A stretch of DNA of 64,000 bases from Candidatus Rifleibacteriota bacterium (GCA_051747585.1 JBNJGH010000003.1:1980-65979); one strand, 5' to 3'. Positions 6,374 to 48,748 are shown, counted from the first letter of the stretch. Made by a program: numbers and translations. Notes: generated by a model not told the origin, from the sequence alone.

Positions 6374-6393
6374 AAAAATCTTTAAAACTTAAA

Positions 6394-6666: not shown

Positions 6667-6773
6667 GATAATCACCTTTCTCATATTCAAAAATCAGGAA
6701 TGGTATTCTAGCACGTACAAAACCTTTTTTCAAGTACACAATTTCCCGCTTCATTACAGGGAGTCTCGAACTC

Positions 6774-7775: not shown

Positions 7776-7790
7776 TTTATCACCTGCGCC

Positions 7791-8894: not shown

Positions 8895-9020
8895 AATCTT
8901 CTCCTCTTGGCTTGCTTTACTTATTTTACCACCATTATTTTTAAAAGTTTTTATTTTTTTAAGAGTTAGCTATGGATTAATTCTCGGTAAATCATTATTC
9001 TCTGGGTTTCAAACGTTCTG

Positions 9021-9110
9021 GTTTATTTCTTTGTGGCTTTGAGGCTTGGTGTGAAGCAAATTCTTTTCTGAAACAAGTTGTTAGTCGCTGACCCAGAATT
9101 GCTGGTAGCT
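9021..9110. repeat. Partial copy (R2) of the right-end module of the repeat family
   Basis: ttatttctttgtggctttgaggcttggtgtgaag...gttgttagtcgctgacccagaattgctgg matches the tail of R3 at 36636-36718. Confidence 0.45.
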
Positions 9111-9187
9111 ATGCCTTGATATGAGAAGTGAAAAGTTTTATACTTAGCTGTTACTAACAGTTTGACGCATTGATACCGGAGTAAACT

Positions 9188-16273: not shown

Positions 16274-16279
16274 CCACAA

Positions 16280-23765: not shown

Positions 23766-25637
23766 ATGTGCGGAATTAATGGAATTATATTATTTGATCA
23801 ATGTAAGCCTTCTAGCGAATTAGCTCATATCGTAGAACTGATGAATGAAAAAATCATTCATCGGGGACCTGACGAAGAAGGTTGCTTTGTTAATAACAGC
23901 CTGGGACTTGGAATCAGAAGGCTATCGATAATTGATTTAAAAACCGGAAGCCAGCCGATTTTCAATGAAGACCACACCCTGGTAATGGTTTGCAACGGAG
24001 AGATTTACAATTTTAAAACCCTACGCCAGATTTTGATTAAAAAGGGGCACCTATTCTCTACTCGAACAGATTCCGAAGTAATTATCCATGCATACGAAGA
24101 ATATGGCAATGATTTTTTAGACAAGCTGGAGGGAATGTTTGCTTTTGCCCTTTATGATATTAAGCAGAAAAAAGTCATTCTCGCCCGCGACAGATTAGGA
24201 GAAAAACCCTGTTACTTTTACAAAGATCAGCATAGACTTATTTTTGCCTCAGAACTTCAAAGTTTACTGTCTACGGGTTATATAAAAAAAACAATTAACA
24301 AGCATGCCCTTGCCCAATACCTTCAATTAACCTATATACCTTCGCCATTAACTATTTATGAGGGTGTTTACAAGCTTAAGCCCGCCCATTATCTGGAGAT
24401 AAACCTAAATGGAGATATAAAAGAGAATTGTTACTGGCATCTTTCATATAAAAAGACCTTAATGGGCTATGATGATGCATGCCAGACACTGAGGAAGAAA
24501 ATTCTTGAGTCCGTTAAAAACTGTATGATCAGCGATGTGCCGGTTGGAGCTTTTTTAAGCGGGGGAATCGATTCGGCTTCGATTGTCAGTTCTATGGCTC
24601 AACTTTCCGACAAGCCCGTAGAAACCTTCACCATTGGTTTTGCCAATAAAAAGTTCGATGAACGAGATAAAGCCAGGCTGGTTGCAAACCTGTATAAAAC
24701 CAATCACCATGAATTTGTTTTGAATTTTAACCAGGCCATAACTATGATAGACAGGCTCATAGAAACTATGGCAGAGCCTTTTGCCGACATATCAACCTTG
24801 CCCACCTATTTTATTTCGCAATTTGCATCTGAACAGGTCAAAGTTGTGCTGACCGGTGATGCCGGAGATGAAATTTTTGGCGGATACAACAAATACTTAA
24901 TAAATTACTTTTCTAAAATTTACTGCAAAATTCCACGATTCCTACGCAAAGGATTCATAGAGCCGATCGTATTTAAAATTAGAGACCGGAATTTTTTAAG
25001 CAGAAAAATAAAAAAAGTTATATCAGCCTCTGAAAAGTCCTATCTAGAACAGAGTATTGATCTAATGACTCTTGGATTTAAGAGAAATGAGCTCGAACTA
25101 CTTCTAAATCCACAACACTATCAATCTGACAGTTTAAAATTCATAAAAGAAATCTATAAAGAAGCACCGGCCAACGATTCTTTGAACAAAACCCTTTATA
25201 CAGATTTAAAGGTCGTTCTAGAAGGAGATATATTTAATAAAGTCGATAAAATGAGCATGTTAAACTCCCTTGAAACCCGAGTTCCGTTTGCAGCCAGGTC
25301 TATTGTCGAGTTTGCCGCAACACTACCGATTGCCTATAAAATTAAAAATAAAAATCTTAAAATCATTCTAAAAGACAGCATGCGAAATGCATTGCCCCCC
25401 CAAATTTTAAATGCGCCGAAATCAGGATTTGAAATTCCCCTGGGCCATTGGTTTCGAAATGAGTTAAAACCAGAGCTCCTGGCGGTTTTAAACAAAAAAA
25501 ATATCGAAAAGCAGGGATTTTTTAACTATTCTTATATAAACCGTATAATACAAGAACACTTGAGTTGCAAAGTCAATCGAAGATATGAGTTATGGGTATT
25601 GTATGTTTTTACAAAGTGGTATTCGAAGCAACAATAA
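23766..25637 (+). CDS. asnB: Asparagine synthetase (glutamine-hydrolysing) family amidotransferase
   Basis: N-terminal MCGI (Ntn-type Cys2), SGGIDS PP-loop, and AsnB length. Confidence 0.85.
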   Translation: MCGINGIILFDQCKPSSELAHIVELMNEKIIHRGPDEEGCFVNNSLGLGIRRLSIIDLKTGSQPIFNEDHTLVMVCNGEIYNFKTLRQILIKKGHLFSTRTDSEVIIHAYEEYGNDFLDKLEGMFAFALYDIKQKKVILARDRLGEKPCYFYKDQHRLIFASELQSLLSTGYIKKTINKHALAQYLQLTYIPSPLTIYEGVYKLKPAHYLEINLNGDIKENCYWHLSYKKTLMGYDDACQTLRKKILESVKNCMISDVPVGAFLSGGIDSASIVSSMAQLSDKPVETFTIGFANKKFDERDKARLVANLYKTNHHEFVLNFNQAITMIDRLIETMAEPFADISTLPTYFISQFASEQVKVVLTGDAGDEIFGGYNKYLINYFSKIYCKIPRFLRKGFIEPIVFKIRDRNFLSRKIKKVISASEKSYLEQSIDLMTLGFKRNELELLLNPQHYQSDSLKFIKEIYKEAPANDSLNKTLYTDLKVVLEGDIFNKVDKMSMLNSLETRVPFAARSIVEFAATLPIAYKIKNKNLKIILKDSMRNALPPQILNAPKSGFEIPLGHWFRNELKPELLAVLNKKNIEKQGFFNYSYINRIIQEHLSCKVNRRYELWVLYVFTKWYSKQQ

Positions 25638-25713
25638 TTTGTTTACCAACCAAAATTTATAAATTAATAATTTAAAACGTGTTAATCTATTTGCCTGCTT
25701 AAAACTTGCTTTC

Positions 25714-25742
25714 TTGTATTATAAAAGGCGATATGCTATAAA
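25714..25742 (+). promoter_or_regulatory. Candidate sigma70-like promoter upstream of the GT4 gene
   Basis: TTGTAT, a 17-nt spacer, then TATAAA, about 60 nt upstream of the ATG at 25800. Confidence 0.3.
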
Positions 25743-25799
25743 TATTTTCGTCGAGCCTTATTCAAGAACCATCCCCAAACTCACCTAAGACTATACCCG

Positions 25800-26924
25800 A
25801 TGAAAACCCGAAAACGAATTGCATTCTCAGCTTCTTCCAAAGCTTTTTTGCGGTCCCGCAAGCACTTAATAAGCAAGCTGGCCAAAATGGGCCACGAAGT
25901 CTTTTGTATAGTACCCATAGAAGAAGGCGAGAACTGTAAAAACGAATTCGGCGCGGAATTTCATTGTTTACCCCTGCAAAAAACGGGATTTAATCCTTTC
26001 AGTGACCTGAAATTTCTATTGGGCCTTATAAAGCTTTTTCGCCGCCTGAAAATCGACATGACAATTGCTTTTACCATAAAACCTGTCATTTATTGTTCAA
26101 TTGCGGCCAAAATTTCTCGAGTCCCCTTTGTAAGCTCAGTTATTACCGGACTGGGCTACGCTTTTGTTAACAATTCTTTTCACCAGAAATTTGCCGGGTT
26201 TATAGCCTCAAAACTATATAAGATAGCTCTTGCCTGTAATCAAAAAGTCTTTTTTCTCAATCCTGATGACCAGATAGAGTTTTTGAACCTTGGAGCGGTC
26301 AAGCCAGATCAATGTGCAATCATAAATGGCCCGGGAGTTGATCTTGAACACTTTAATTTTTCGCCCTGGGAATCAAACAAAACCAGCTTTGTATTGATTG
26401 CTCGAATGTTAAAAGAAAAGGGAGTGATGGAATTCGTCGAAGCAGCCCGCAAAATAAAAGAAGTTTATCCTGAAACTGAATTTAACATAGTTGGACCTTC
26501 AGATCCCGGCCCTTCAGCAATAAGTATAAAAAAACTCGAAGACTTTACACGCCGGGGCCTGGTTAAATATCTTGGTTACACCGATGATGTGCGAACTTAT
26601 TTGCGGAATTCTGCCGTTTATGTGTTACCTTCTTATTATCGGGAAGGAATTCCAAGAACTAATCTTGAAGCAATGGCAATCGGAAGAGCAATAATTACAA
26701 CTGATACTCCCGGATGCAGAGAAACTGTTCAAAATGGGAAAAATGGTTATCTAATACCTCCACGTAACAGCAGCGCTCTGGCCAAAGCTATGCTAAAATT
26801 TATTGAGAAGCCATCACTCGCGAATACGATGGGAAAAGCAAGCCGAGAATTGGCAGAAAAAAGTTTTGCCGTGAATGAAATAAATCATTCTATGATGTCC
26901 GACCTCAATCTATTAGAAACCTGA
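25800..26924 (+). CDS. Glycosyltransferase family 4 (GT-B, RfaG-like)
   Basis: C-terminal EGIPRTNLEAMAIGRAIITTDTPGCRE E-x7-E-type motif. Confidence 0.8.
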   Translation: MKTRKRIAFSASSKAFLRSRKHLISKLAKMGHEVFCIVPIEEGENCKNEFGAEFHCLPLQKTGFNPFSDLKFLLGLIKLFRRLKIDMTIAFTIKPVIYCSIAAKISRVPFVSSVITGLGYAFVNNSFHQKFAGFIASKLYKIALACNQKVFFLNPDDQIEFLNLGAVKPDQCAIINGPGVDLEHFNFSPWESNKTSFVLIARMLKEKGVMEFVEAARKIKEVYPETEFNIVGPSDPGPSAISIKKLEDFTRRGLVKYLGYTDDVRTYLRNSAVYVLPSYYREGIPRTNLEAMAIGRAIITTDTPGCRETVQNGKNGYLIPPRNSSALAKAMLKFIEKPSLANTMGKASRELAEKSFAVNEINHSMMSDLNLLET

Positions 26925-26937
26925 CCGGGAGTTTACC

Positions 26938-27831
26938 GTGAATTATTTAAACGAAAAAGAAATAACTTTTGGCCAATTCAAACAAGTTGCCTTACAGCAT
27001 TACGGGTGGGCATTAATTTGTATTATCTCATTACTTTTTCTCGAAAGCTTTTTCTTTATTTATCCGCCCCGCGGCTTTGTTGCCGAAGATTTCGTTACTT
27101 TGGGCAGCATAAAAGGGCAACCTCTGTTATCTATTGACAGCCTCTGGCAAAGCAAAATCAGCGACGATATATTTATGCTTGATATTCTAGATGGTTCTGA
27201 AATAAAAAGGTTTAAAAACCGTGTAGAAAAATTGAGATACATAGAAAATAATTTGCGCCCCAATCTTCATTTTACCAGTTTAAACAAAACTATTTTTAAA
27301 ATAACCTTTATTCAACCTTCAGCAGAAAAAATCAGGCCGTTTTTGAATGTTTTTACCAAAAAGTTTCTCGATCAAGTTGCCTTAATAAGCCGGGAACAAT
27401 TGCAAAACAGAAGAAGAAACGCCAATTTTTTTTATCGGCAATTGTTGCGACGTAACGCTCTAATTCACAGCTTATTCAAACCTACAACCAAGTTTGAAAA
27501 AATAATTCCCGATCAGAAAAGTCGAATAGACAACGTATTTCCTCAAGATGAAGATAGCTGGCTTGGCAAAATTGGTCTTATAACAATTAATGAGTTAAAT
27601 AAATACCTTTTTAGAGCTCAAACTATGTTAAAAGATTATACTGACGAACAACAGAAAATATTGTCTTTGTTCCCATTTACTCACAAAAGACTCACCGATC
27701 CCGAAATGCCTCCCAAGCCTGTACAACCCTTTTTGTTTGTATTTCATATTTTTGTAGTTATAGCGATTTTCCTTATCTATATTGCCGGATTGTTTTATTA
27801 TTTTCCCTTTAAAGACGAGGACAAGTCGTAG
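26938..27831 (+). CDS. Hypothetical membrane protein with Wzz-like topology (two TM helices flanking a soluble domain)
   Basis: An N-terminal TM helix and a C-terminal TM helix (FLFVFHIFVVIAIFLIYIAGLFYYF). GTG start. Function is inferred only from topology and gene context. Confidence 0.3.
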   Translation: MNYLNEKEITFGQFKQVALQHYGWALICIISLLFLESFFFIYPPRGFVAEDFVTLGSIKGQPLLSIDSLWQSKISDDIFMLDILDGSEIKRFKNRVEKLRYIENNLRPNLHFTSLNKTIFKITFIQPSAEKIRPFLNVFTKKFLDQVALISREQLQNRRRNANFFYRQLLRRNALIHSLFKPTTKFEKIIPDQKSRIDNVFPQDEDSWLGKIGLITINELNKYLFRAQTMLKDYTDEQQKILSLFPFTHKRLTDPEMPPKPVQPFLFVFHIFVVIAIFLIYIAGLFYYFPFKDEDKS

Positions 27832-29052
27832 ATGGAAAGAGGCGTTACCGATGACTCTGCATTTCCCTTACCCCTTTCTCTTTACATCATTTTTTTTCCC
27901 ATAGCTATAGGAATCCTTGGACCAAGTTTCATTGTCGCCGACATATTTTTTCTTTTATTTATTTTTGCCTGTCTCATTAAAGCCTTTATTAGGAAACAAT
28001 TTACCATTATTTCTTTAGACGCTATATTTTTAATTTTTCTTGGGTGTACGGCATTCGGCAACAATATTACCGCTCACTTGCCCGCCTATTTGTTTGAAGT
28101 AGCTTCTCTTGTTTACATGTATGCAGGATCTCGATGCATACTAAGCCAGATTGACAGTAGCGAAAAACTAAACCAATTTATTGATCTGATAAGAAAAGTT
28201 TTTATTATATTTTTGTTATTTTCCGCCATCATAATAATTTTCAGGGCATTAGGTTTTAATCACATAACCGAGTCATTTTTCAAATATGGTAAAAATTACA
28301 AAGGCTTTTTTAATTTTACCAATCAGCTATCCATCTTTTTTGCCTGTTTATGGCCAATTACAATTATTGGCTTCTCTGAAAAGCCGGCTTGGAGATTTTT
28401 CTTTTACTTTATTTATTTAGTCATTCTCAGCTACACAGGATCTCGCAGCGGCTTCTGGATAGGTCTTGGGCAAACCACTCTAATTGAAATTCTTTTTTGC
28501 AACAAAAAACAGAGCGCATTTTTAGTGGCACGAGCTTTTGGCCTTGCCGCCGTTCTTTTTTTTGTTATAACCATTATGGCAACCATGCCGTCTTTAAACA
28601 GGAGTTTAGGACAAAACAAAGACGCTTCTTTGAGCCTGGATCAACCAAGAATTATAAACTTCCGCAATGCTTTTAACAATTCAAAATCCTGGCTAAGCGG
28701 ATATGGTTTAGGCTGTTTTGACCAGGTCTATCGCTTCGAAGTCCACAGCACTCCGTTGTCAATTTTAGTTGAAACAGGAATCTGTGGTTTTCTGTCTTTG
28801 TCGCTGGGAATTATTATTTTTGCTAATGCTTTTTTAAGGGCAAGTCCCGACCGATCCCTACCAAACCTGAAAAAAGCTCTTATCATTTCTTATTTGGGAA
28901 TTATAGGAATTGGAACAGTTAATTATTTGTTTCGAAACCGTTCCTGCTGGTTATTATTTGCAATAACCCTTGTATTTATAAAAATCCAAAGTAAAGAAAA
29001 AGTTTTACTCAAAACATTTGCAAAGACTTCTGGCGAATATAAACATAACTGA
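27832..29052 (+). CDS. O-antigen polymerase/ligase family (Wzy-like) polytopic membrane protein
   Basis: About 10 TM helices and a Wzy_C-like loop (GYGLGCFDQVYRFEVHSTPLSILVETG). Confidence 0.6.
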   Translation: MERGVTDDSAFPLPLSLYIIFFPIAIGILGPSFIVADIFFLLFIFACLIKAFIRKQFTIISLDAIFLIFLGCTAFGNNITAHLPAYLFEVASLVYMYAGSRCILSQIDSSEKLNQFIDLIRKVFIIFLLFSAIIIIFRALGFNHITESFFKYGKNYKGFFNFTNQLSIFFACLWPITIIGFSEKPAWRFFFYFIYLVILSYTGSRSGFWIGLGQTTLIEILFCNKKQSAFLVARAFGLAAVLFFVITIMATMPSLNRSLGQNKDASLSLDQPRIINFRNAFNNSKSWLSGYGLGCFDQVYRFEVHSTPLSILVETGICGFLSLSLGIIIFANAFLRASPDRSLPNLKKALIISYLGIIGIGTVNYLFRNRSCWLLFAITLVFIKIQSKEKVLLKTFAKTSGEYKHN

Positions 29053-29944
29053 CCAGCATTTTTTGAATAAAGCCTTTCCACATAGACCTCAATATTTCAT
29101 TTCGTTTTAAAAATCTGGCATATCTTAAAAATCTAAAAGTCTCACTAAGGCTCAGATGCCCAATACTTGCCAATCCTGTTTGAAAAAATTCTTTTGAAAG
29201 CGCAGTTTTATAAAATTTACCACCTTTATATTTTTCAAGAATTTTCATTCTGTTTTCATGCATATATTTGAAATTAAAAACGGTATTGCTGTCGTGTATT
29301 CTATACTTGGCAACGGGCACAGGCAAAGACCGCAATTTACCTCCCGCATCAGACAATTTAAGCCACATATACCAATCCTCTATTTTAATATTAGAATCAT
29401 AACCACCGACGTTTTGAACAGCATCTCTTCTAAGTAGGGCTGCAGGCCCTGAAGGTATGTATTTTTGCATTATAAGCTCCTCAAAACTATGCCAATGATC
29501 CATACCTTTTTGTATTTTTAATACTTTACCCTCTTCGTCAATCAATTCGTATCCACCGAAAGCTGCAGAAATTCTTGAATCTTTTTCTAATATTGGAAGT
29601 AAAATTTTTATCTTTTCGGGCAAAAGAATATCGTCAGATGCAACAACCATAAAATATTTGCCGTCTGCCCAGGCAAGTCCCTCATTTAAAGTTGGCGTAA
29701 GCCCTTTGTTAGGTCTATTTCTATACTCAAACCTCTTTAAAGAGGCTTGGCAAATATTGAGTATTGGCTTGATACGTTCATTGGTTTTGTCGTTTGAGCC
29801 ATCATTAATCAATATAAATTCCAGATTGTTATAATCCAGCCTCAAAACGCTTTTTACAGCTTCAACAACAAATTTTTCATGATTATAAGCCGGCATACAA
29901 ACAGAAATTAAGGGGTTATTTTCAGTTGTTTTTTCTTTTGCCAT
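29009..29944 (-). CDS. Glycosyltransferase family 2
   Basis: ISVCMPAYNHEKFV ... LINDGSND GT-A signature. Confidence 0.8.
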   Translation of the reverse strand: MAKEKTTENNPLISVCMPAYNHEKFVVEAVKSVLRLDYNNLEFILINDGSNDKTNERIKPILNICQASLKRFEYRNRPNKGLTPTLNEGLAWADGKYFMVVASDDILLPEKIKILLPILEKDSRISAAFGGYELIDEEGKVLKIQKGMDHWHSFEELIMQKYIPSGPAALLRRDAVQNVGGYDSNIKIEDWYMWLKLSDAGGKLRSLPVPVAKYRIHDSNTVFNFKYMHENRMKILEKYKGGKFYKTALSKEFFQTGLASIGHLSLSETFRFLRYARFLKRNEILRSMWKGFIQKMLVSYVYIRQKSLQMF

Positions 29945-30248
29945 GAGTTTTATTATGTACGTTACCTACTTTTTTAAAAAGTAGCAGCAGAATAGAATTT
30001 ATAATCTAGAACAAAAAACATACTTGGGCAAGACATAAAGATTGTAATACCAGACAAAGCTCTATTGTATGGAATCAACTCCTTGAATTTTCGAATATAT
30101 TGGAATAAGCTATAGCTTGATTGAATGTTTTCTACGCTCAAATACTTGCAGATGACTGCTTGAAAAAAAAGACAGTTAAATTAGCTATTCAGCAAATTTT
30201 TCACGTAATTTTCCAGTCTCCAACATCAAATTAAAATTCTGAAAAAAA

Positions 30249-31127
30249 TTGAAATCTGAAAACCATACTAACCAAATAATTACAAAGTTATATAAAAAAA
30301 TAAATAAGATTGTGCGGAACAAATTGTTTCCCTCAAGATCACCGTATTTCATGATCATAGGTGCAGAAAAATCCGGCACAAGTTCCTTACATTATTACCT
30401 TGACCAGCACCCACTGCTGGATGGTTCCAATCCCAAAGAGTTACATTATTTTGACCGGGAAAAATATTACAATAAAAACATAATATGGTATGAAAACCAT
30501 TTTTGTTCGTTAAGAAAAAAGATTAAACATTTCGAATCTACCCCTAATTATATTTATTATGAATCTATAGCAAGAAATATTAAGGACTTATATCCAGAAA
30601 TAAAACTAATTTTGCTACTTCGTGAACCAATTAAAAGAGCCTATTCAGCCTGGAACATGCATAAAAAATTTTTCGAGTCAAAAAAATCACCAGTAAGCAA
30701 ATTTTTACCAGATGGTTCCAGCAATCCTCTTTATAATTATTTTTATAAAAACAGATCTACTTTTCCTTCTTTTGAAGAGTGCATCCAGCTGGAATTGGAT
30801 GAGAAGGTCAAAAACACTAAAGAACCGGCTATTGTGAGACGAGGGCTATATTTTGACCAAATACAAAATTACCTGAAATACTTTTCCAGGGATCAACTTA
30901 TGATATTGGGGATCAAAGATTTAAAAGAGCGTAAAATTGAGACTTTAAATAATTTAATGAAATTTCTTGAGCTTCCCCAGTTTAATTGGAAAAGAATAGA
31001 TTTAACGGAAATAAACAAAAGAACCTATACCCAGGCAATGAAAAGCGATACCAGAAAACGACTTCAAGACTTTTATTCAGAACCCAACAAAAAACTATTT
31101 GAAAATTTTGGAGAAATTAATTGGTAA
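30249..31127 (+). CDS. PAPS-dependent sulfotransferase
   Basis: 5'-PSB loop IIGAEKSGTSSL and 3'-PB region LLLREPIKRAYSAW. Confidence 0.7.
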   Translation: MKSENHTNQIITKLYKKINKIVRNKLFPSRSPYFMIIGAEKSGTSSLHYYLDQHPLLDGSNPKELHYFDREKYYNKNIIWYENHFCSLRKKIKHFESTPNYIYYESIARNIKDLYPEIKLILLLREPIKRAYSAWNMHKKFFESKKSPVSKFLPDGSSNPLYNYFYKNRSTFPSFEECIQLELDEKVKNTKEPAIVRRGLYFDQIQNYLKYFSRDQLMILGIKDLKERKIETLNNLMKFLELPQFNWKRIDLTEINKRTYTQAMKSDTRKRLQDFYSEPNKKLFENFGEINW

Positions 31128-31148
31128 AGAACACTTTATGAATATTTT

Positions 31149-32120
31149 TTAACGAACATAGCCGAATTGTTTCAATTTTTTCTTTGAAAAGCCATAATCC
31201 TGCAAAAATAAATTATCTGCACAAAGTATTTCTGACAAATCGTGCTTTTGCGAGTCGTTGAGATAGCTATGAGCATTATCTTTTGTTACTTTTACATTTT
31301 GACACTTTGCAAGAATTTTTGAGTAAATGGGTTTAAGAAAATGAAAATTCTTTAGAAGATAGCCCAAATGAGTTTTTCTTATTTTTTCAACTCGATAATG
31401 AATTTTTTGACTCAGGGTTATCCCCGGGCTAACCTTACCATAAGAGCAATAAACGCTTTTATTACAGGGCTCACTGTTAAACTGGCTTTGAAGCATTTGC
31501 CAATCAAGTTTCAATAATTCGCCAAGCTTACCAAAATAGGAATTCGAATCGTTTTGCAGATCTTCATATAAAATTACCTCAAGATCCGAGAAATATTTAC
31601 TAATATAATTTATCAGGCGGCGATAGAAAAGAATGTCAAAAGCCTCTTTCTCCGGGTTGCGCAGGACGCCAGCAACAAATTTGTTTAAAGAATTCATATC
31701 TTTTTCATTATGAAAAATCCAACGGAACATTTCAACATAATAGGCATAAACAAAACTCGTAGGCTCTCTAAGACTTATAAGTATTTTTGTATTATAAGGC
31801 TTTAATAATTCAGCTAATTTGGGAATCATCTGTTTATGATAAAGATTATGAGAAATTGAAATACATTCTTCACTGATTACATTCATCAGATCTCTGGTTA
31901 ATTGCTCTTCAAGTTCATTTCTTATCAGCGAAATGTTTCTGCCATTTTTCAAACTGCTGAGAATCTGGCCAATGGGGTTGTAAAGACCTTCCTGCAAAAA
32001 AGCTCCATGCCGACCGAGAAAATTGATTTTTCCGTTTGAGTGAAGAGGCATCAATAAATTTGATTGTAAGGAAGTTGTAGCTGTTTTAGGTAATCCAACG
32101 TGAAGAACAATTTTTTTCAT
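31149..32120 (-). CDS. Second sulfotransferase-family protein
   Basis: HVGLPKTATTSLQ P-loop-like PSB motif at the N-terminus and RE...R region; more divergent. Confidence 0.5.
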   Translation of the reverse strand: MKKIVLHVGLPKTATTSLQSNLLMPLHSNGKINFLGRHGAFLQEGLYNPIGQILSSLKNGRNISLIRNELEEQLTRDLMNVISEECISISHNLYHKQMIPKLAELLKPYNTKILISLREPTSFVYAYYVEMFRWIFHNEKDMNSLNKFVAGVLRNPEKEAFDILFYRRLINYISKYFSDLEVILYEDLQNDSNSYFGKLGELLKLDWQMLQSQFNSEPCNKSVYCSYGKVSPGITLSQKIHYRVEKIRKTHLGYLLKNFHFLKPIYSKILAKCQNVKVTKDNAHSYLNDSQKHDLSEILCADNLFLQDYGFSKKKLKQFGYVR

Positions 32121-32123
32121 CGA

Positions 32124-33221
32124 TCAAAATCCATTAACAAGCTCTATTATTACTTTTGTATCTTCTTCATTCTGTACTGAACTAACAGGCAAACTCAAAA
32201 CCTGTTCATGAATAATTTCAGTAATTTTCAACTCAGTAGTTTGCAGGTCCTTTAAAGACTTTTGGCGGTGAGGTGGAATTGGATAATGGATCATTGTCTC
32301 GACACCATTTTCAAAAAGATATTTTTGCAAATTCTTTCGATCTTTTGCCCTTATAACAAATAAATGCCAGACATGACTATCATCTTGTATGAATTCGGGC
32401 AAAATGATTGCTGAATTGGAGATGCTTTCACAATACAACCTTGCAATGTTTTTACGCTTATTATTCTCCTGATCAATGTATTTCAACTTTACTCTCAAAA
32501 AGGCGGCCTGAAGTTCATCGAGCCGACTATTAACTCCCAGGTAATTATTGACGTATTTTTTATCACTTCCATAATTTCTCAATGCTTTAATACAGGTTGC
32601 CAACTCTTTGTTATTAGTTATTACAGCGCCCCCATCACCTAAAGCACCCATATTTTTTCCCGGGTAAAAACTGAATCCCGCAGCATCGCCAAAAGAACCG
32701 GCTTTTTTACCGAATTGGATTGCGCCATGTGCCTGAGCAGCATCTTCAATTACTAACAAGTTATGTTTTTTAGCAATTCTTACTATTTTATTCATTTCAG
32801 CAACGCGGCCATAAAGATGAACCGGCATAATAGCTCTTGTCTTTCTGGTAATAAACTTTTCTATTAAAGTTGCATCTATATTGTATGATTTAATATCTGG
32901 CTCGATTAGAACAGGCTTTAAATTATTTTCAGTTATAGATAGAATGGTCGCAAAATAAGTGTTAGCCGGAACAATTATCTCGTCACCCTCAGTTAATAAC
33001 CCAAGCTCTTTGTAAGCTCTCAAAATAAGGGTTAAGGCATCGAGCCCATTAGCAACACCAATACAATATTTTACCTTATTATAAAGCGCAAACTCTTTTT
33101 CGAACGAATCAACCTCAGTTCCCAAGACATACCAACCCGAGTTCAGCACTCGCTCAAATGCCTCACTTAATTCTTGTTTATATTGAAGATTTATTTTTTG
33201 TATGTCGAGAAAGTTGATCAC
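32124..33221 (-). CDS. fdtB: DegT/DnrJ/EryC1-family PLP-dependent sugar aminotransferase (dTDP-3-keto-6-deoxyhexose 3-aminotransferase-like)
   Basis: Family-typical N-terminus and PLP-Lys region; it sits in an fdtA-fdtC-fdtB arrangement. Confidence 0.75.
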
Positions 33222-33227
33222 AATATA

Positions 33228-33683
33228 TTATCTCAGTTTTTTTACAATTCTGGCGGGCACCCCTGCCACAAGAGCATTCGGGGGAACATTTGTGGTTACA
33301 ACTGCGCCGGCGGCTACCATCGCCTTGCTTCCGACAATGATTCCAGGCAATATAGTAGCGTTCGCTCCGATAGAAGCTCCCTTACAAATAACTGTTTCGA
33401 GAAAACTATCGGGGTATTTTCCTGATTCAGGATATTTGTCATTGGTAAAGGTCACGTTGGGTCCAATAAATACGTTATCTTCGATTTTTATACCATCCCA
33501 AACCTGAACCCCACACTTGATTGTAACATTATCGCCAATAGTTACATCATTTTCAATAAAACAATGAGAGCAGATATTACAATGTTTGCCAATTTCTGCA
33601 CCTGCCAGAACAACGCAAAATTGCCAGATATTGGTATCTATACCAATATTCTCAGACTGCACATCACTTAATTTATGAATCAT
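33228..33683 (-). CDS. fdtC: Hexapeptide-repeat (LbH) sugar N-acetyltransferase
   Basis: Left-handed beta-helix hexapeptide repeats ([LIV]-G-x-x-x-x). It sits between fdtA and fdtB. Confidence 0.7.
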
Positions 33684-34072
33684 AATAAAGCCTTGAATTT
33701 GCAGTAATCTCTAATATAATCTTCTTCAGAAAAATAATTGTCTGCCAGAACCATCAAAACACAATCTGGCGAAAAATCATATAACTCCCGCCATGTCATT
33801 TCATCGATAAAAAGCCCTCTATCAGGTGAATCAAGGGTAACTTCCGCCTTTTCAAAACCATCGTCAAGACAACATTTGCAACTGCCATTCAAACAAACGA
33901 CAATCTGCTTTAGTTTTTTATGGGCATGACAGCCGCGTTTAACACCTACTTTGGTATCGAAAATGTAATAAATTCTTTTGATTTCAAAAGGAATATTTTT
34001 CAAACTTTCTAATGCAACAAGCGAACCTCGATCATCGCCCATTATTTCAAAGTTGAAAATTGCAGGTTTCAT
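33680..34072 (-). CDS. fdtA: dTDP-4-keto-6-deoxyglucose 3,4-ketoisomerase (cupin, WxcM C-terminal type)
   Basis: Very close match to the FdtA consensus: KRIYYIFDT ... RGCHAHKKL ... VCLNGSC ... DDG. Confidence 0.85.
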
Positions 34073-34296
34073 TGATCAGCCAAGTCCTTTAAGCTTAAGT
34101 CAGCATACTCACAAAACAGGATAACACAACTTTGAACATCAAGCGCAGTGTTCTAATTCATTTGACTTAGCTCACTACAAGTATTAAATTACAGCCTGTT
34201 TAACTTGCGAATCTTCGATATATACTTTTTGAATGCGGTTACAATGTTATTAAAATTTAAAACCTTTTCTTTTAAAATCTTATTCTGGAGCTATCT

Positions 34297-35058
34297 ATGA
34301 GAAAAGTTTTTGATTTTTTTATCAGCAGTCAGGTTCGGCTCTCTGCAATTTTTGACAAGTTTCTTCCAACAATTATGAGAAGAGATGGTTATTCTGACTA
34401 CATCTCAGCCATTATGCCCACAAAGCTTAAAAGGGGCTTAAAAATTGTCGATGTTGGCGGGGGAAAAAAGCCGGTTATATCGTTGGCGCAAAAAGAAGGT
34501 CTGGGCCTCAAAATTACTGGTTTTGACCTGAGCAGCAGGGAATTAAAAAAAGCACCCCAAGGCATCTATGATCATATTTTTACCGGCGATATCTGTAAAA
34601 CCTGCATTAACTTAAATGCTGATCTGGTTATCTGTATAGCAGTTCTCGAGCACGTAAAAGATACAGAAGCTGCCCTTAAAAATATTGCTGCAATGCTTAA
34701 CCCCGAGGGAAAAGCTCTTATTTTTGTACCCTGCCGAAATTCTATTTATGCACAGTTAAATTTAATCCTTCCGCAAAATTTGAAAAGAACTCTTCTTTCT
34801 TTTTTATGCCCCGGAAGTGAAAAATACCAGGGATTTAAAAGCTTCTACGACAGATGCACTCCCGCAAAATTTAAACAAAACGTCCGCAAAGCTTGTCTTA
34901 AAGTAATTGACGAATATTATTATTTTCAAAGCGACTATTTTTCTTTTTTCCTGCCTTTACATGTTCTATACAGATTGACGACTCTTTTACTTCGTAGATC
35001 GCTTGGCAATGATGCCGCCGAAACTTTTACTCTTTTGCTTCAGCGCTCTGATGACTAA
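34297..35058 (+). CDS. Class I SAM-dependent methyltransferase
   Basis: Motif I: KIVDVGGGKKP. Confidence 0.55.
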   Translation: MRKVFDFFISSQVRLSAIFDKFLPTIMRRDGYSDYISAIMPTKLKRGLKIVDVGGGKKPVISLAQKEGLGLKITGFDLSSRELKKAPQGIYDHIFTGDICKTCINLNADLVICIAVLEHVKDTEAALKNIAAMLNPEGKALIFVPCRNSIYAQLNLILPQNLKRTLLSFLCPGSEKYQGFKSFYDRCTPAKFKQNVRKACLKVIDEYYYFQSDYFSFFLPLHVLYRLTTLLLRRSLGNDAAETFTLLLQRSDD

Positions 35059-36262
35059 GCCAGGGCGGCTGATTAGCATAAAACTCTTTATAAAGCATTG
35101 TTATTGCTATTAAAGTAATAATAGTATGGTTCGCGCACAGGCCGGCAATTTTAAAATTCAATGCCAGAAATATTGCCAGAAATATTCTGATAAATGCAAG
35201 TTTAAGCATAATTTTATTCAGCTTTGCTTCAAGCCCGAGACTGTAAAACAAAGGTATCATAAAGGCATTGGGAATAGCCATCCAGAGTGATAACCATAAA
35301 AACAAAGCTGCAAGTGTAACTTCGTTAAAAGCATAAAATTTTAAATACCATACCAGTGCACCGATTACCATGACCGAAACACAAACAGCTCCGCCAAGCT
35401 TGAAATGCCTTTTTTTTGCCAGCTCGAGCTCTTGTTTATCTGTTTTGTTAACAGCTTCGTTCATTCCCGGGTATACTGCCTGAGCACTGACATAAGACGG
35501 CCAGATGCATAATTTAAGTGCAGAATCAAGGGTTCCATAAACGCCCAACAGTTCAGGGCTAAAGAATCTGCCTGCCACCAGCGAATCGATTCTTACATAA
35601 ATTGAATTAGCAACTCCCAGCGCCATAAAAGGCCATGCTGTTTTAAACATTAATCTAAATTCATTATTGGATTTTGCAATCGGATGCGCCTGCGAAGAAT
35701 CAATAACTATTGTTTCTATCCAGACACCAATTGCGAGTGCAGCCAGTGCAACATTGGCATTAAAGGATTGAAGACTCGCACAAATTATTATAAAAAGCAT
35801 AGCCGACAAGAAATGAACTATAGAACCGCGCAGAAGCGAGCTATATTCCTGGCGGGCGTGACGATAGCCCTGATTTCCCAGTAAAACGACCCTGCCGACG
35901 CAAAAGAAGAAAGCAGCCAGCCCTGCGCCTTGCCAGCTCCAGGCAATTTCACCGAACTGGTTAAAAATTATAAAAATCAGACCGCCAAAAAATCCTAAAA
36001 TTATTCTGGTGATAATTATTTCAGGAAGTTGGGGATGAGTTCGATTATCTCTGCTGCCAAACAACACAGGAAAAGCTTTTGCCATACCCATATCAGCAAT
36101 TTGCGACACAACAAAAGCTGCATTTGAGATAAAAAAGAATTTGCCCGCTTCTGCTTTTGAACTGAATATTATCAAAGCGAACTGCAAAAGTGGAATTGCC
36201 GCCAGACTCATGGTTCTGGCAAGAGCGAAAGGTAAAATTTTTCTAAAAATAAATTCGAACAT
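35027..36262 (-). CDS. Wzx-like polysaccharide flippase (MOP superfamily)
   Basis: About 12 TM helices and a Wzx-like N-terminus; it lies within the glycan cluster. Confidence 0.6.
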   Translation of the reverse strand: MFEFIFRKILPFALARTMSLAAIPLLQFALIIFSSKAEAGKFFFISNAAFVVSQIADMGMAKAFPVLFGSRDNRTHPQLPEIIITRIILGFFGGLIFIIFNQFGEIAWSWQGAGLAAFFFCVGRVVLLGNQGYRHARQEYSSLLRGSIVHFLSAMLFIIICASLQSFNANVALAALAIGVWIETIVIDSSQAHPIAKSNNEFRLMFKTAWPFMALGVANSIYVRIDSLVAGRFFSPELLGVYGTLDSALKLCIWPSYVSAQAVYPGMNEAVNKTDKQELELAKKRHFKLGGAVCVSVMVIGALVWYLKFYAFNEVTLAALFLWLSLWMAIPNAFMIPLFYSLGLEAKLNKIMLKLAFIRIFLAIFLALNFKIAGLCANHTIITLIAITMLYKEFYANQPPWLSHQSAEAKE

Positions 36263-47199: not shown

Positions 47200-47964
47200 T
47201 TATAGTCCTGTTGGCAGGTCTATAAATTCATATTCCAGCGCGAACTTTTCGGCCAGATGTTTGGCCAGAGCTTGAACTCCAAAAACCTCAGTCGCATAAT
47301 GTCCCGCCGAAACCATGTTTACTCCTACATCTCGGCAGGCTGCAACCCCCTGGTGAATAATTTCACCGGTTAAAATTAAATCGATTTCGCCGTTATAAAC
47401 CTGCTCAGCATTTACAGAGCTCCAGCCACCGCCGGAAGTAATTCCAATATTTTGAACTTTTTCTTTACCAAAATCCAGATTGGTATTGATTGGGCCAATC
47501 AATTTTTCGATTTTATTTTTAAACTCATTTAGTGATACAGGTTGCTTGAGTCTGGCAAGTACACCCACAGGATTTCTGCCTGCTCCAAAAGGGCCTTTTA
47601 CTTCTGCTTGAAGTAAGTTGGCCATTTGAGCATTATTACCAAAAATCAAATGCGCATCAAGCGGTAGATGCATGGCAAAAAGATTAAGATCGCCCTTCAT
47701 AAGCGATTTAACCATTCGTTGTTTTATGCGGTTAAGGCTTGTCCATTCTCCGCCTTTCCAGAACAGGCCGTGATGAACAAATGCAAAATCACCGTTTTTT
47801 TTGATTGCCTTATCAAAGAACTCAACAGTTGCATCAACGCCGGCAATTATTTTTTTTATTTCTTCTTTTCCTTCAAATTGCAGGCCATTGTATGAATAAT
47901 CGGGAAAATTGTAATCTGCAAAAATTTCATTAATATATTTAATCAGTTCATTTCGATTTACCAT
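47200..47964 (-). CDS. Nif3-family dinuclear metal-centre protein (YqfO/YbgI-like)
   Basis: Conserved Nif3 N-terminus (ADYNFPDYSYNGLQFEG) and the HHG motif. Confidence 0.8.
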   Translation of the reverse strand: MVNRNELIKYINEIFADYNFPDYSYNGLQFEGKEEIKKIIAGVDATVEFFDKAIKKNGDFAFVHHGLFWKGGEWTSLNRIKQRMVKSLMKGDLNLFAMHLPLDAHLIFGNNAQMANLLQAEVKGPFGAGRNPVGVLARLKQPVSLNEFKNKIEKLIGPINTNLDFGKEKVQNIGITSGGGWSSVNAEQVYNGEIDLILTGEIIHQGVAACRDVGVNMVSAGHYATEVFGVQALAKHLAEKFALEYEFIDLPTGL

Positions 47965-48748
47965 TAAAATCTCTCCTGTTCATCTTAAGTGGTATTGTAT
48001 CAAAACAATAATCGATACCCAGCTCATTACACTTTTCTTTAACAAATAATTTCTGCTGACCGGTTTTTGATGCTTCGACTGTCAAAAGCAAACAATCATT
48101 ATTTAATAAAGGCTCAACTTTTTTTAAGCGCTTTTTGCGCTGCCAGGGATGAATATGTTTACCGTTTTTATCATTGAATAAACCGCTGGTAATTACACCA
48201 TCGATTTTATTGTTTATTAACGTTTCTTCGACAAAGGTTTCACCTTCAAGCAATATTAGAGGATCACTTTTGTATCTCGCAGCCTGCTCAGTTATTTTTA
48301 AAACAAGCTGCCACATCATTCGTTTATTTAAAGGATTGTTAGAAACGAGTTTAAAATAATCTGCCCGTGCCAGTAAAATACCTTCAAAGCCTTTCAACAT
48401 ATATTCTCGCACTCTACTGACAAGAATATTTGTGAATGCCTGGGAATAAAAGCGGGCAAATTTAAGATTTTGGGGTGATTTTTTCCGATCTAAGACATAG
48501 TTTTTGGCTCTAATGTCTAAAGGCATAATACGCCAGTCTTCGACCTCACAAACATTCAGCCAGGCTACAGGAGTAAGTCCTTTATTTACGAGCTCCTGTA
48601 ATTGGGCACGACTGTAACAGTCAGGATCCAGCACAACTATACCATTTGAGGCCGTAATTTCTTCACCGGTGGCTACAAATTGCCAACCAAAAGCTGATAC
48701 CGTAGAAAAAACAAATACAAGCAACAGAGACAGGATATTTTTTTTCAC
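47948..48748 (-). CDS. Secreted hypothetical protein, possibly a GH114/TM1410-like TIM-barrel hydrolase
   Basis: Signal peptide. The family assignment is tentative and based on size and composition only. Confidence 0.3.
   Translation of the reverse strand: MKKNILSLLLVFVFSTVSAFGWQFVATGEEITASNGIVVLDPDCYSRAQLQELVNKGLTPVAWLNVCEVEDWRIMPLDIRAKNYVLDRKKSPQNLKFARFYSQAFTNILVSRVREYMLKGFEGILLARADYFKLVSNNPLNKRMMWQLVLKITEQAARYKSDPLILLEGETFVEETLINNKIDGVITSGLFNDKNGKHIHPWQRKKRLKKVEPLLNNDCLLLTVEASKTGQQKLFVKEKCNELGIDYCFDTIPLKMNRRDFNGKSK

Follow-up and report, generated by a model that had tools for sequence, protein, structure and literature searches.

The surface glycan of an uncultured Rifleibacteriota bacterium is predicted from its genes to carry a sulfated form of a rare amino sugar. 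In the window, by which is meant the whole 64,000-nucleotide (64-kb) stretch of Candidatus Rifleibacteriota bacterium DNA that was analysed, a glycan cluster, probably of the Wzx/Wzy type, encodes two candidate sulfotransferases, ST1 and ST2, together with an Fdt cassette for an acetamido-dideoxyhexose (Table 1). In the reading that we prefer, to which we give a probability of about 0.6, both are PAPS-dependent O-sulfotransferases and ST2 sulfates the Fdt-made sugar on a lipid-linked unit. The novelty lies in the tie of the ST2 family to the Fdt pathway; a Wzx/Wzy cluster with sulfotransferases has been described before, for synechan. The core of the initial annotation, which described two sulfotransferases and a dTDP-3-acetamido-3,6-dideoxyhexose cassette in a heteropolysaccharide cluster, stands with the corrections given below.

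Table 1. Genes of the glycan cluster and key codons of ST2 (window coordinates)
Feature	Position	Strand	Details
AsnB-type glutamine amidotransferase	23766..25637	+	623 aa; first cluster gene
GT4 glycosyltransferase	25800..26924	+	374 aa; Glycos_transf_1 116 bits, Glyco_trans_4_2 52 bits
297-aa protein, hydrophobic segment at either end	26938..27831	+	TM-like segments aa 17-35, 265-283
Probable Wzy / O-antigen-polymerase-family membrane protein	27832..29052	+	406 aa; at least 6 TM-like segments
GT2 glycosyltransferase	29009..29944	-	311 aa; Glycos_transf_2 90 bits
ST1, canonical PAPS-type carbohydrate sulfotransferase	30249..31127	+	292 aa counted from TTG
ST2, divergent sulfotransferase-fold protein	31149..32120	-	323 aa; last gene of fdtA-fdtC-fdtB-ST2 operon
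ST2 A126	31743-31745	-	codon GCC at 3'-PB Ser site
ST2 R118	31767-31769	-	3'-PB Arg codon
ST2 E85	31866-31868	-	invariant Glu codon
ST2 K12	32085-32087	-	PSB Lys codon
FdtB/QdtB-type dTDP-3-keto-6-deoxyhexose 3-aminotransferase	32124..33221	-	365 aa; DegT_DnrJ_EryC1 359 bits
FdtC-type left-handed beta-helix N-acetyltransferase	33228..33683	-	151 aa; Hexapep 80 bits
FdtA-type dTDP-6-deoxy-3,4-keto-hexulose isomerase	33680..34072	-	130 aa; PF05523 170 bits
Class-I SAM-dependent methyltransferase	34297..35058	+	253 aa; Methyltransf_23 58 bits, Methyltransf_11 41 bits
Probable Wzx / MOP-family flippase	35027..36262	-	411 aa; nine TM-like segments

The glycan cluster

ORF calling places 13 ORFs between 23766 and 36262, the same boundaries as had been claimed for the cluster. 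Every gene in it is uninterrupted and has the full length expected for its family, and the sulfotransferase/glycan cluster feature is no product of chance. The region is probably a compact, low-GC heteropolysaccharide cluster of the Wzx/Wzy type. As had been described, ST1 and ST2 lie on opposite strands; they are convergent, with 21 bp between their 3' ends.

The asnB-like, GT4, GT2 and SAM methyltransferase genes named in the initial annotation all give clear Pfam matches. The amidotransferase matches Asn_synthase (309 bits), GATase_7 and asn_synth_AEB (474 bits, cutoff 267), and scores 557 bits, under the cutoff of 817, with the XrtA/PEP-CTERM amidotransferase model. The genes for the amidated and methylated repeat unit that had been suggested are thus there, but the suggestion goes by gene presence alone, and no uronic-acid pathway gene that might provide the amidotransferase target was found in the cluster. 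The methyltransferase showed no specific relationship to the one adjoining FdtA in a related locus (L001).

The Wzx and Wzy identities are probable, and are drawn from multi-pass topology together with HMM scores short of their gathering thresholds (GA), so that the earlier naming of both is borne out in topology and left sub-threshold in profile. The Wzy-like protein matches Wzy_C (E = 9e-7) at 29.2 bits, under the GA of 31.7, and the Wzx-like protein matches Polysacc_synt_3 (E = 7e-5) at 22.7 bits, just under the GA of 23, and Polysacc_synt at E = 5e-3; pairwise BLAST of the former with the Wzy of another locus and of the latter with other Wzx proteins was uninformative. The 297-aa protein, whose gene is followed by the Wzy-like one at a distance of 0 bp, had no match in Pfam or NCBIfam, Wzz HMMs included; its topology makes it a possible Wzz-like co-polymerase. 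A true Wzz/GNVR protein is encoded at 59033-60268, 23 kb from the cluster. No initiating phosphoglycosyl transferase (Bac_transf or WecA-type) was found within the 64-kb window.

ST1, a conventional sulfotransferase

By its sequence, ST1 appears to be a conventional PAPS-dependent O-sulfotransferase of the heparan-sulfate (HS) 3-OST / NST type. It exceeds the Pfam gathering score for both Sulfotransfer_1 (58.1 bits, GA 22) and Sulfotransfer_3 (35.4 bits, GA 27), and its closest PDB matches are HS 3-OST-5 (3bd9, E = 5.6e-16) and 3rnl (E = 1e-15). In the 3bd9 alignment its GAEKSGTSS, FESTPNY and LLREPIKRAYS segments line up with 3-OST motifs, and K41 (the 5'-PSB Lys), E96 (the catalytic base), and R125 and S133 (3'-PB) match HS 3-OST-5 motif positions; the same four residues are conserved in the ST1 family alignment (A2). 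More than 140 homologs were gathered, with PF00685 and PF13469 in every one. The start of ST1 is uncertain, the TTG being used here and M35 by NCBI. No TM-like segment is seen in ST1 or in ST2, and both are soluble, presumably cytoplasmic enzymes.

ST2, a divergent family member

The initial annotation had claimed two PAPS-type sulfotransferases and proposed that each be checked by sulfotransferase HMM and conserved residues. The claim holds for ST1 on every count that had been set. ST2 gave no Pfam match even at E = 10, none in NCBIfam, and none in a single-sequence PDB search, it lacks the 3'-PB helix Ser, and NCBI annotates it as ‘hypothetical protein’. By the proposed check alone ST2 would have been rejected; its identity as a sulfotransferase therefore needed evidence from profiles, structure and context, which supports it. 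Atypical PSB motifs that PF00685 misses are found in some bacterial carbohydrate sulfotransferases (PMC11625862).

Profiles built from the family recover the relationship. The ST2 family profile matches SULT4A1 and 3rnl (4e-6), and PF00685 is weakly matched by 12 of 24 family members (E <= 0.1, best 3e-6). A global hhalign alignment of ST2 with ST1 (98.2%) pairs K12 with K41, E84/E85 with E96, R118 with R125 and A126 with S133. The structural check that had been proposed also bears the assignment out: the AF2 model (pLDDT 92.7, pTM 0.88) is predicted to have a sulfotransferase fold, with a central beta-sheet, a strand-loop-helix (PSB) and a strand-turn-helix (PB), and the best Foldseek matches are TPST, 3rnl, SULTs and the CurM sulfotransferase domain. 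In the model K12 lies within GLPKTATTS, after strand 3-8 and before helix 15-28. Family members can be recognised by their P-loop, H-x-G-x-PKTAT-T/S, by an invariant Glu that follows strand 2, and by the Arg...Ser of the 3'-PB helix. The invariance of the P-loop is partly due to the pattern used for retrieval, but K12 is also invariant in an alignment (A1) gathered without use of the motif. All 109 homologs with scores of 117 bits or more have E85 and R118. E85, and E84 as the partner of ST1 E96 in the alignment, are candidates for the catalytic base, which is His or, in 3-OST and NST, Glu. Profile and model evidence thus place ST2 in a divergent family with the sulfotransferase fold, one that is largely unannotated but retains both the PSB Lys and the 3'-PB Arg.

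ST2 might instead be no sulfotransferase, but a P-loop kinase/NTPase-like protein, or a protein with the sulfotransferase fold that uses another donor or an acceptor unrelated to the glycan. Its position below every curated sulfotransferase HMM, its annotation as hypothetical, the low Foldseek TM-scores (0.34-0.46) and the GPN-loop GTPases among the matches would fit such a protein. We regard this as highly improbable.

The substitution at position 126 raises a different doubt. Eight residues after Arg118, Ser is found in 102/109 of these homologs, Ala in five and Gly in two; the window ST2 has Ala126. This Ser has been regarded in reviews as a defining or catalytic residue (PMC11625862, PMC4757672), and its counterpart in SULT1E1 forms a hydrogen bond to the catalytic Lys and keeps PAPS hydrolysis in check (PMC4757672), which lends support to the idea that ST2 is catalytically impaired or inactive, by Ser126Ala or for shortage of PAPS, with the glycan sulfated by ST1 only or by neither enzyme. 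The absence of PAPS genes from the 64-kb window is in keeping with this. However, the gene runs to its full length without disruption and keeps all other conserved residues, and the recurrence of Ala or Gly at this site in seven homologs across the score range suggests that the substitution is tolerated. The neighbouring ST1 depends on PAPS too, and the cell can therefore be presumed to produce it. An impaired ST2 is therefore judged unlikely.

The Fdt operon and its sugar

ST2 had been described as inserted adjacent to the Fdt cassette. Gene spacing indicates instead that it is the fourth gene of a predicted co-transcribed fdtA-fdtC-fdtB-ST2 operon, 3 bp from fdtB (gaps ST2-fdtB-fdtC-fdtA of 3, 6 and -4 bp), and the association is kept throughout the family. 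The cassette itself is confirmed: the 3,4-ketoisomerase (PF05523, 170 bits), 3-aminotransferase and N-acetyltransferase of the dTDP-3-acetamido-3,6-dideoxyhexose pathway are all in this one operon. The aminotransferase matches 5u1z (E = 6e-134), 7n63 (E = 1.5e-130) and QdtB 3frk (E = 1e-119), and the FdtC-type protein matches the 4mzu N-terminal domain (E = 4e-68) and the N-acetyltransferase 7s43 (E = 2e-67), with QdtC at only 4e-16. The isomerase scores higher with FdtA 2pa7 (E = 8e-48, 165 bits) than with QdtA 4zu7 (E = 2e-32, 115 bits), which favours a galacto (Fuc3NAc) over a gluco (Qui3NAc) product. RmlA and RmlB (NTP_transferase, dTDP-glucose dehydratase) are absent from the 64-kb window and must be encoded elsewhere in the genome. 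The literature that could be searched yielded no sulfated Fuc3NAc or Qui3NAc, as would be expected if the structure is new, but just as much if the prediction is wrong.

FdtB creates a 3-amino group that is itself a conceivable target, in which case the ST2 family would be N-sulfotransferases yielding a sulfamido sugar, with N-sulfation replacing or competing with N-acetylation. An FdtC-type N-acetyltransferase is present, however, in the window and in 20 of the 22 FdtA-containing loci of the 117-200-bit bin, and where loci seemingly without FdtC were inspected, a different acyltransferase is encoded nearby (Acetyltransf_6 in L035; a long hexapeptide enzyme and KAS III in L034). N-sulfation is thus very unlikely.

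ST2 neighbourhoods in other genomes

The association of ST2 with Fdt genes is conserved throughout the family, which is found in many marine bacteria. Among 143 loci dereplicated at 90% identity, 72 of the close clade were compared with 40 distant relatives. Of the close-clade loci, 42/72 have a sugar aminotransferase no more than 3 kb from ST2, as do 3/40 distant ones (p = 6e-8, for loci that are not phylogenetically independent); in the 42 it is on the same strand in all but one (41/42) and upstream of ST2 in 34. FdtA lies within 5 kb in 26/72 against 3/40, and RmlA within 10 kb in 19/72 against 1/40. Many of the approximately 40% of close-clade loci without an aminotransferase within 3 kb are short contigs. 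ST2 directly adjoins an aminotransferase on the same strand in 22 loci.

Two proteins (P0149 and P0167) are ST2-GT2 fusions. Compared with the GT2 that immediately follows the ST2 homolog of Marinobacterium (L012), the window GT2 shows 39% identity (E = 3e-62), and compared with the GT2 domain of P0149 it shows 28% (E = 1e-19); by sequence it appears to be of the same type as the GT2s that trail or are fused to ST2 homologs. The placement of the ST2 family beside rare-amino-sugar genes leads to the prediction of a sulfated form of that sugar, and it is gene neighbourhood alone that points to this acceptor.

The timing of sulfation could differ from that which we prefer. ST2 might act on the nucleotide sugar, so that sulfated dTDP-3-acetamido-3,6-dideoxyhexose is transferred ready-made by a glycosyltransferase. 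This would suit the usual position of ST2, right after the aminotransferase in a nucleotide-sugar sub-operon (RmlB-RmlA-FdtA-FdtC-FdtB-ST2) and not among the glycosyltransferases, and fusion of ST2 to GT2 or adjacency to it would also suit donor channelling. However, the nearest structural relatives of ST2 (3-OST, NST) work on polymer chains, and in several loci (L006, L012) Wzx stands between FdtB and ST2, so that not every locus keeps strictly to this order. We know of no bacterial nucleotide-sugar sulfotransferase, which further counts against this route, and we consider it doubtful.

Proposed pathway and PAPS supply

In the preferred scheme, with sulfation on the lipid-linked unit, RmlA and RmlB encoded elsewhere would supply dTDP-4-keto-6-deoxyglucose, which FdtA, FdtB and FdtC would convert to dTDP-3-acetamido-3,6-dideoxyhexose, Fuc3NAc being favoured. 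A GT2 would add this sugar to the repeat unit, carried on undecaprenyl diphosphate, on the cytoplasmic side of the membrane, where ST2, using PAPS, would place sulfate at an unsubstituted hydroxyl (O-2 or O-4) of the newly added sugar. ST1 may sulfate a second position or residue, after which Wzx would flip the sulfated unit and Wzy polymerise it. What the analysis shows is the gene content, the folds and motifs, the place of ST2 in the operon, and the ties of its family to amino-sugar and PAPS genes; the donor, acceptor, regiochemistry and timing, and the full activity of the Ala126 variant, are what we infer here.

No APS kinase, ATP sulfurylase, CysD/N or CysQ gene was found within the 64-kb window. 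ST2 homologs outside this genome share operons with PAPS-synthesis genes, an APS kinase lying within 10 kb of the ST2 homolog in 11 loci. The gene order in L006 is CysDN, transporter, CysC, RmlB, RmlA, FdtA, FdtC, FdtB, Wzx and the ST2 homolog; in L012, from the cultured Marinobacterium sediminicola, it is transporter, CysQ, CysD, CysNC, RmlBA, FdtACB, Wzx, the ST2 homolog, glycosyltransferases and Bac_transf. No second sulfotransferase candidate was found in the L012 cluster, the ST2 homolog being the only one.

Comparison with known systems

The initial annotation held sulfated surface polysaccharides to be uncommon in bacteria, a view that is only partly right, since sulfotransferases within Wzx/Wzy or capsule clusters have been described in Synechocystis (PMC8205485), Vibrio (PMC11641403) and Cobetia (PMC11766843). 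The synechan (xss) cluster of Synechocystis sp. PCC 6803 has two sulfotransferases of distinct subfamilies, XssA and XssE, and like the window cluster it is of the Wzx/Wzy type, with glycosyltransferases and a co-polymerase (PMC8205485), the Wzx, Wzy and co-polymerase of the window cluster being putative. Its sulfation is presumed to be cytoplasmic and to precede export, as proposed here. In contrast, synechan is made up of neutral hexoses plus rhamnose, nothing in its cluster corresponds to the amino-sugar (Fdt) cassette of the window, and the xss sulfotransferases, unlike ST2, are detectable by Pfam (PMC8205485). ST1 gave tblastn matches on five Synechocystis plasmid records (counted per record); ST2 matched no plasmid in the collection searched.

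Sulfotransferase genes also lie within polysaccharide clusters of the marine bacteria Vibrio sp. KMM 8419 (PMC11641403) and Cobetia marina KMM 1449 (PMC11766843), and co-located cysC/cysN/cysD genes have been proposed as a hallmark of sulfated glycan synthesis (PMC11641403, PMC11766843). L006 and L012 share that cys-gene pattern, whereas the window itself is without cys genes. The Vibrio capsule differs in its ABC transporter export, its sulfated rhamnose and its lack of an Fdt pathway (PMC11641403).

NodH, KpsS and Stf0, of rhizobial and mycobacterial glycolipids, are likewise bacterial PAPS-dependent carbohydrate sulfotransferases. The heparan sulfate 3-O-sulfotransferases and the NDST sulfotransferase domain (3bd9, 1zrh, 1nst) are animal Golgi enzymes that act on glycosaminoglycan chains; ST2 is only approximately 15% identical to them, and differs in its PKTAT loop, in an extra ~60 residues near the C-terminus and in the replacement of the Ser by Ala.

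The characterised FdtA/B/C and QdtA/B/C pathways (2pa7, 3frk, 3fs8) are those of Aneurinibacillus thermoaerophilus and Thermoanaerobacterium thermosaccharolyticum. The window shares their three enzyme activities in one operon, with FdtA closest to 2pa7 and the aminotransferase matching QdtB. In the literature searched, these pathways end at the N-acetylated dTDP-sugar, and no sulfotransferase tied to them was found. In contrast, an ST2-family gene is appended to the Fdt pathway here and in dozens of related loci.

The glycan cluster and its Fdt genes

Two proteins of the window are 100% identical to proteins encoded on a 77-kb contig from a Candidatus Rifleibacteriota MAG. Thirteen ORFs fill the glycan cluster. 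It is bordered by housekeeping genes: on the left those for MgsA, an unknown secreted protein and two HD-domain proteins, on the right one for a DUF885 protein. The coding strand switches six times over 12.5 kb, the strand groups being asnB-GT4-unk297-Wzy (+), GT2 (-), ST1 (+), ST2-fdtB-fdtC-fdtA (-), methyltransferase (+) and Wzx (-), where ST1 and ST2 are the two sulfotransferase candidates. These switches, together with the overlapping 3′ ends of two convergent pairs (Wzy/GT2 and methyltransferase/Wzx), suggest that the cluster was assembled as a mosaic. Most cluster genes have a GC content below the window mean of 0.399, with ST1 (0.313) and ST2 (0.334) the lowest; low GC and strand flips are the usual picture of a variable, horizontally exchanged surface-glycan island. 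A promoter and terminator scan of 29800-34400 gave results no different from shuffled sequence.

The AsnB-type amidotransferase, GT4, GT2, methyltransferase, FdtA, hexapeptide acetyltransferase and DegT aminotransferase all pass their Pfam thresholds. The Wzy and Wzx calls rest on E-value and multi-pass hydropathy, with sub-threshold scores (Wzy_C, 29.2 bits against a GA of 31.7, E ~1e-6; Polysacc_synt_3, 22.7 bits against a GA of 23, E 7e-5), and pairwise BLAST against better-scoring Wzx and Wzy proteins of related loci was uninformative. The 297-aa protein abutting Wzy (unk297) carries two hydrophobic segments, one at either terminus, and was matched by no HMM; that it is a co-polymerase is only a guess. 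RmlA/RmlB, an initiating phosphoglycosyl transferase and PAPS-synthesis genes were not found within the 64-kb window, where motifs of APS kinase, ATP sulfurylase, CysD and CysQ were first sought by regex and Pfam was then run on the ORFs of at least 100 aa.

At the level of sequence, comparison with solved structures confirms the Fdt pathway assignment. The isomerase is nearest to FdtA (2pa7, 8e-48, 165 bits), with QdtA lower at 115 bits. The acetyltransferase resembles 7s43 and 7s3u, both N-acetyltransferases, and the N-terminal domain of 4mzu, a 'WxcM-like protein', with E-values of ~1e-67; the aminotransferase matches 5u1z and 7n63 at ~1e-130 and QdtB at 1e-119. ST2 had been described as inserted beside this cassette; it is instead an operon member, closing the order fdtA-fdtC-fdtB-ST2, in which successive genes are spaced by -4, 6 and 3 bp.

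Coordinates of features in the window
Feature	Position	Strand	Remark
GAF-domain signalling proteins	9188-16273		three in succession: SpoIIE-type phosphatase, GGDEF diguanylate cyclase, HD_5 (HD-GYP-like)
Glycan cluster	23766-36262
Wzy/GT2 3′ overlap	29009-29052		44 bp
ST1	30249-31127	+	292 aa from TTG
Region upstream of NCBI start of ST1	30249-30353	+
ST2	31149-32120	-	323 aa
Codon of ST2 A126	31743-31745	-	GCC, confirmed
fdtA/fdtC/fdtB	32124-34072	-
Methyltransferase/Wzx 3′ overlap	35027-35058		32 bp
GH114-like glycosidase	47948-48748		overlaps the phosphomutase gene
Phosphoglucomutase/phosphomannomutase	48745-50163
PD-(D/E)XK transposase-family protein	52516-53523
N6_Mtase/Eco57I/TaqI_C protein	57340-59007		restriction-modification methylase-type
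Wzz/GNVR co-polymerase	59033-60268		bona fide
Wzz/GNVR gene and neighbour	59033-61398		neighbour with Biotin_lipoyl match

ST1 is a canonical sulfotransferase

ST1 scores 58 bits against Sulfotransfer_1 (GA 22). With E-values from 1e-12 to 6e-16 it also matches heparan sulfate 3-OST-5 and 3-OST-1, the sulfotransferase domain of NDST1, and 3rnl, a sulfotransferase of bacterial origin. Its motifs GAEKSGTSS (K41), FESTPNY (E96) and LLREPIKRAYS (R125, S133) align with their 3-OST counterparts. More than 140 relatives, in Bacteroidota, Gammaproteobacteria and other taxa, all carry PF00685 and PF13469, and distant relatives are plasmid-borne in Synechocystis, Sinorhizobium and the Roseobacter group. 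The deposited gene model, which starts at M35 (258 aa), is probably truncated. An earlier start, at TTG (30249), GTG (aa 22) or TTG (aa 26), is more likely because P32 and 20-30 residues ahead of the PSB strand are conserved in the family.

ST2 as a probable divergent sulfotransferase

By the measure set for it in the initial annotation, a match to sulfotransferase HMMs, ST2 fails: single-sequence searches of Pfam (to E = 10), NCBIfam and PDB gave no match, and its NCBI name is hypothetical. Direct BLASTP of ST1 against ST2 yields just a 45-residue match with E = 0.08. Pfam sulfotransferase seeds are skewed to animal enzymes and miss bacterial ones (PMC11625862). ST2 can nevertheless be counted as a probable sulfotransferase on four independent lines of evidence, which include profiles, motifs and gene context. 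A profile of 24 first-pass ST2 homologs matches SULT4A1 and 3rnl at 4e-6, and 12 of the 24 have weak PF00685 matches. Alignment of the ST2 and ST1 family profiles by hhalign gives 96.9% (local) and 98.2% (global), the global alignment pairing K12 with K41, E84 with E96, R118 with R125 and A126 with S133. In the 109 homologs with scores of 117 bits or more, E85 and R118 never vary, and 102 have Ser at position 126. That the PKTAT loop does not vary in this larger set is partly a product of the retrieval pattern, but the 24 first-pass homologs, gathered without the motif, showed no variation in it either.

The weak point of the case is A126. The Ser of the 3′-PB motif is regarded in reviews as a defining residue, and in SULT1E1 the equivalent Ser forms a hydrogen bond to the catalytic lysine and keeps PAPS hydrolysis in check (PMC11625862, PMC4757672); the literature searched yielded no quantitative mutagenesis of this residue. 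Seven ST2 homologs scattered over the score range have Ala or Gly at this position, which suggests that replacement of the Ser is tolerated. Reduced or uncoupled activity of the window ST2 is possible. Of the proposal of two PAPS-type sulfotransferases in a glycan cluster, the canonical ST1 and the Fdt cassette hold good, whilst ST2 departs from it in the HMM test, in not being an insertion and in its 3′-PB residue.

The ST2 family often accompanies amino-sugar pathways

Six neighbourhoods of ST2 homologs in other genomes and metagenomes were fetched singly. FdtA, an acyltransferase and a DegT protein adjoin the homolog in L001, L005 and L006, a DegT protein and a PglD-like acetyltransferase lie by it in L003, and in L004 and L007 it sits among glycan genes without Fdt. 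The methyltransferase of the window was compared with the FdtA-adjacent one in L001 and showed no specific relationship to it.

A wider survey used 72 genome and 80 metagenome loci found by the family P-loop pattern, whose six-frame ORFs were scanned with HMMs from the window, L001, L005 and L006; dereplication at 90% identity left 143 loci. For loci in which the sequence to one side of ST2 extends 3 kb or more, the contrast between the close clade (at least 117 bits) and distant relatives is large. A sugar aminotransferase lies within 3 kb of ST2 in 42/72 close-clade loci against 3/40 distant ones (Fisher p 6e-8), FdtA within 5 kb in 26/72 against 3/40 (p 7e-4) and RmlA within 10 kb in 19/72 against 1/40 (p 1e-3), p-values that overstate certainty because the loci are not phylogenetically independent. 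In 41 of the 42 cases ST2 and the aminotransferase share a strand; the aminotransferase lies upstream of ST2 in 34 and directly adjacent to it in 22.

One subclade (HMM scores of 218-250 bits; L014, L017, L018, L019, L086, L089, L093 and L094, from Thalassotalea, Alcanivorax, Marinobacter and metagenome contigs) has the arrangement RmlB-RmlA-aminotransferase-[1.7-2.4 kb]-ST2. The aminotransferase of these loci scores only ~90-130 bits against the FdtB model and so probably belongs to a different dTDP-amino-sugar pathway. In L007, a TARA scaffold, the family seems to have expanded locally: the ST2 HMM matches four ORFs at ~735-7341 with 162-316 bits, two or more of these are neighbours, one has Ala at the 3′-PB Ser position, and Fdt genes are absent nearby. 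A tblastn search of 72,556 plasmids with ST2 found no match.

PAPS synthesis and partner enzymes

An APS kinase lies within 10 kb of the ST2 homolog in 11 dereplicated loci. In L006 the order is CysD-CysN fusion, CitMHS/TrkA_C transporter, APS kinase, RmlB, RmlA, FdtA, FdtC, FdtB, Wzx and ST2 homolog. The strongest argument that the ST2 family comprises genuine PAPS-dependent sulfotransferases, as we predict, is the operon of L012, from the cultured Marinobacterium sediminicola CGMCC 1.7287. Here a complete cluster forms a co-directional run (5-17842) of sulfate-type transporter, CysQ, CysD, CysN-CysC fusion, RmlB, RmlA, FdtA, FdtC, FdtB and Wzx, then the ST2 homolog, GT2, GT, an unknown protein, GT4, two epimerases and a Bac_transf initiating transferase. 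The genes after the ST2 homolog were also tallied as four glycosyltransferase-like genes, two epimerases and Bac_transf. Searches of L012 with an ST1-type HMM and Pfam found no further sulfotransferase, so the ST2-type protein is the only visible consumer of the operon's PAPS. The L012 cluster is an ideal cultured model for testing the function of the family.

The GT2 that follows the ST2 homolog in L012 is 39% identical to the window GT2 (3e-62). Two 50%-cluster representatives, P0149 (672 aa) and P0167 (720 aa), are fusions of an N-terminal ST2 domain to a C-terminal GT2 domain. Their GT2 domains differ in type: that of P0149 is 28% identical to the window GT2, and that of P0167 proved unrelated to it. 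P0218 (510 aa) is a further fusion, in which the domain order may be reversed.

ST2-type and ST1-type genes are paired, as in the window, in nine other dereplicated loci, and an ST2-type gene occurs with a Sulfotransfer_2 gene in L001 and L003 and with a Sulfotransfer_3/1 gene in L035. Two unlike sulfotransferases per cluster is thus a recurring design, and the synechan cluster likewise contains two different sulfotransferases (PMC8205485).

A model for sulfation

Neither ST1 nor ST2 has TM-like segments and PAPS is cytoplasmic, so sulfation is expected before Wzx flips the repeat unit. In the most economical model, predicted in its donor, acceptor, regiochemistry and timing alike, FdtA, FdtB and FdtC would make dTDP-Fuc3NAc or its gluco epimer, GT2 would then transfer this sugar, ST2 would sulfate O-2 or O-4 of the Fuc3NAc/Qui3NAc residue on the lipid-linked intermediate, and ST1 would act at a second site. 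The place of ST2 in the operon also leaves room for sulfation of the dTDP-sugar itself, an RmlB-RmlA-FdtA-FdtC-FdtB-ST2 module yielding sulfated dTDP-3-acetamido-3,6-dideoxyhexose; we consider this rather improbable. If true, this activated sugar would be new and the enzyme the first in bacteria to sulfate a nucleotide sugar, and marine bacteria with the module should show sulfated Fuc3NAc/Qui3NAc, as yet undescribed in any glycan. N-sulfation by ST2-family enzymes, considered for loci that lack an FdtC-type gene, is unlikely, since even in those loci the pathway comes with N-acyltransferases. Under the preferred model of O-sulfation on the lipid-linked residue, confirmation would give bacterial glycobiology a new sulfated monosaccharide, together with a regiospecific sulfotransferase that acts on a 6-deoxy amino sugar.

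Relation to known systems

The window probably holds a fairly ordinary sulfated-glycan cluster that lacks PAPS genes within the window, a modest result. We know of no cultured members of the Rifleibacteriota phylum. Sulfotransferases have been described within bacterial Wzx/Wzy, ABC-type or capsule clusters of Synechocystis (synechan; PMC8205485), Vibrio sp. KMM 8419 (PMC11641403) and Cobetia marina (PMC11766843), with co-located cysNDC genes proposed as a hallmark (PMC11641403). The window cluster as a whole is one more member of this documented group.

The ST2 family itself is uncharacterised, and its association with the Fdt pathway appears unreported: the searchable literature yielded no report of sulfated Fuc3NAc or Qui3NAc and no paper on a sulfotransferase together with fdt or qdt genes. 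The family is of moderate size: a library of 1.84 billion proteins contains 396 representatives (~400 clusters at 50% identity) with E <= 1e-30, rising to 2,986 with E <= 1e-10. RefSeq names eight of ten members from cultured organisms 'hypothetical protein'; UniProt auto-names about half 'Sulfotransferase domain-containing protein', so the superfamily link is already partly recognised. Statistics now tie a family mostly 'hypothetical' in RefSeq to a single nucleotide-sugar pathway and to operons dedicated to PAPS synthesis. The prediction can be tested in cultured M. sediminicola CGMCC 1.7287 and Pseudoalteromonas amylolytica JW1, whose orthologs WP_239039994.1 and WP_070983255.1, respectively, have Ser where the window ST2 has A126. 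Sulfated bacterial polysaccharides are wanted as heparin-like and metal-binding biomaterials, and the bottleneck is finding the responsible enzymes.

Other features of the window

The run of GAF-domain proteins, which lies ~8 kb upstream of the glycan cluster, has the appearance of a c-di-GMP control block. The Wzz/GNVR and GH114-like/phosphomutase genes may belong to other polysaccharide systems nearby, and the stretch between them includes the transposase-family and methylase-type genes.
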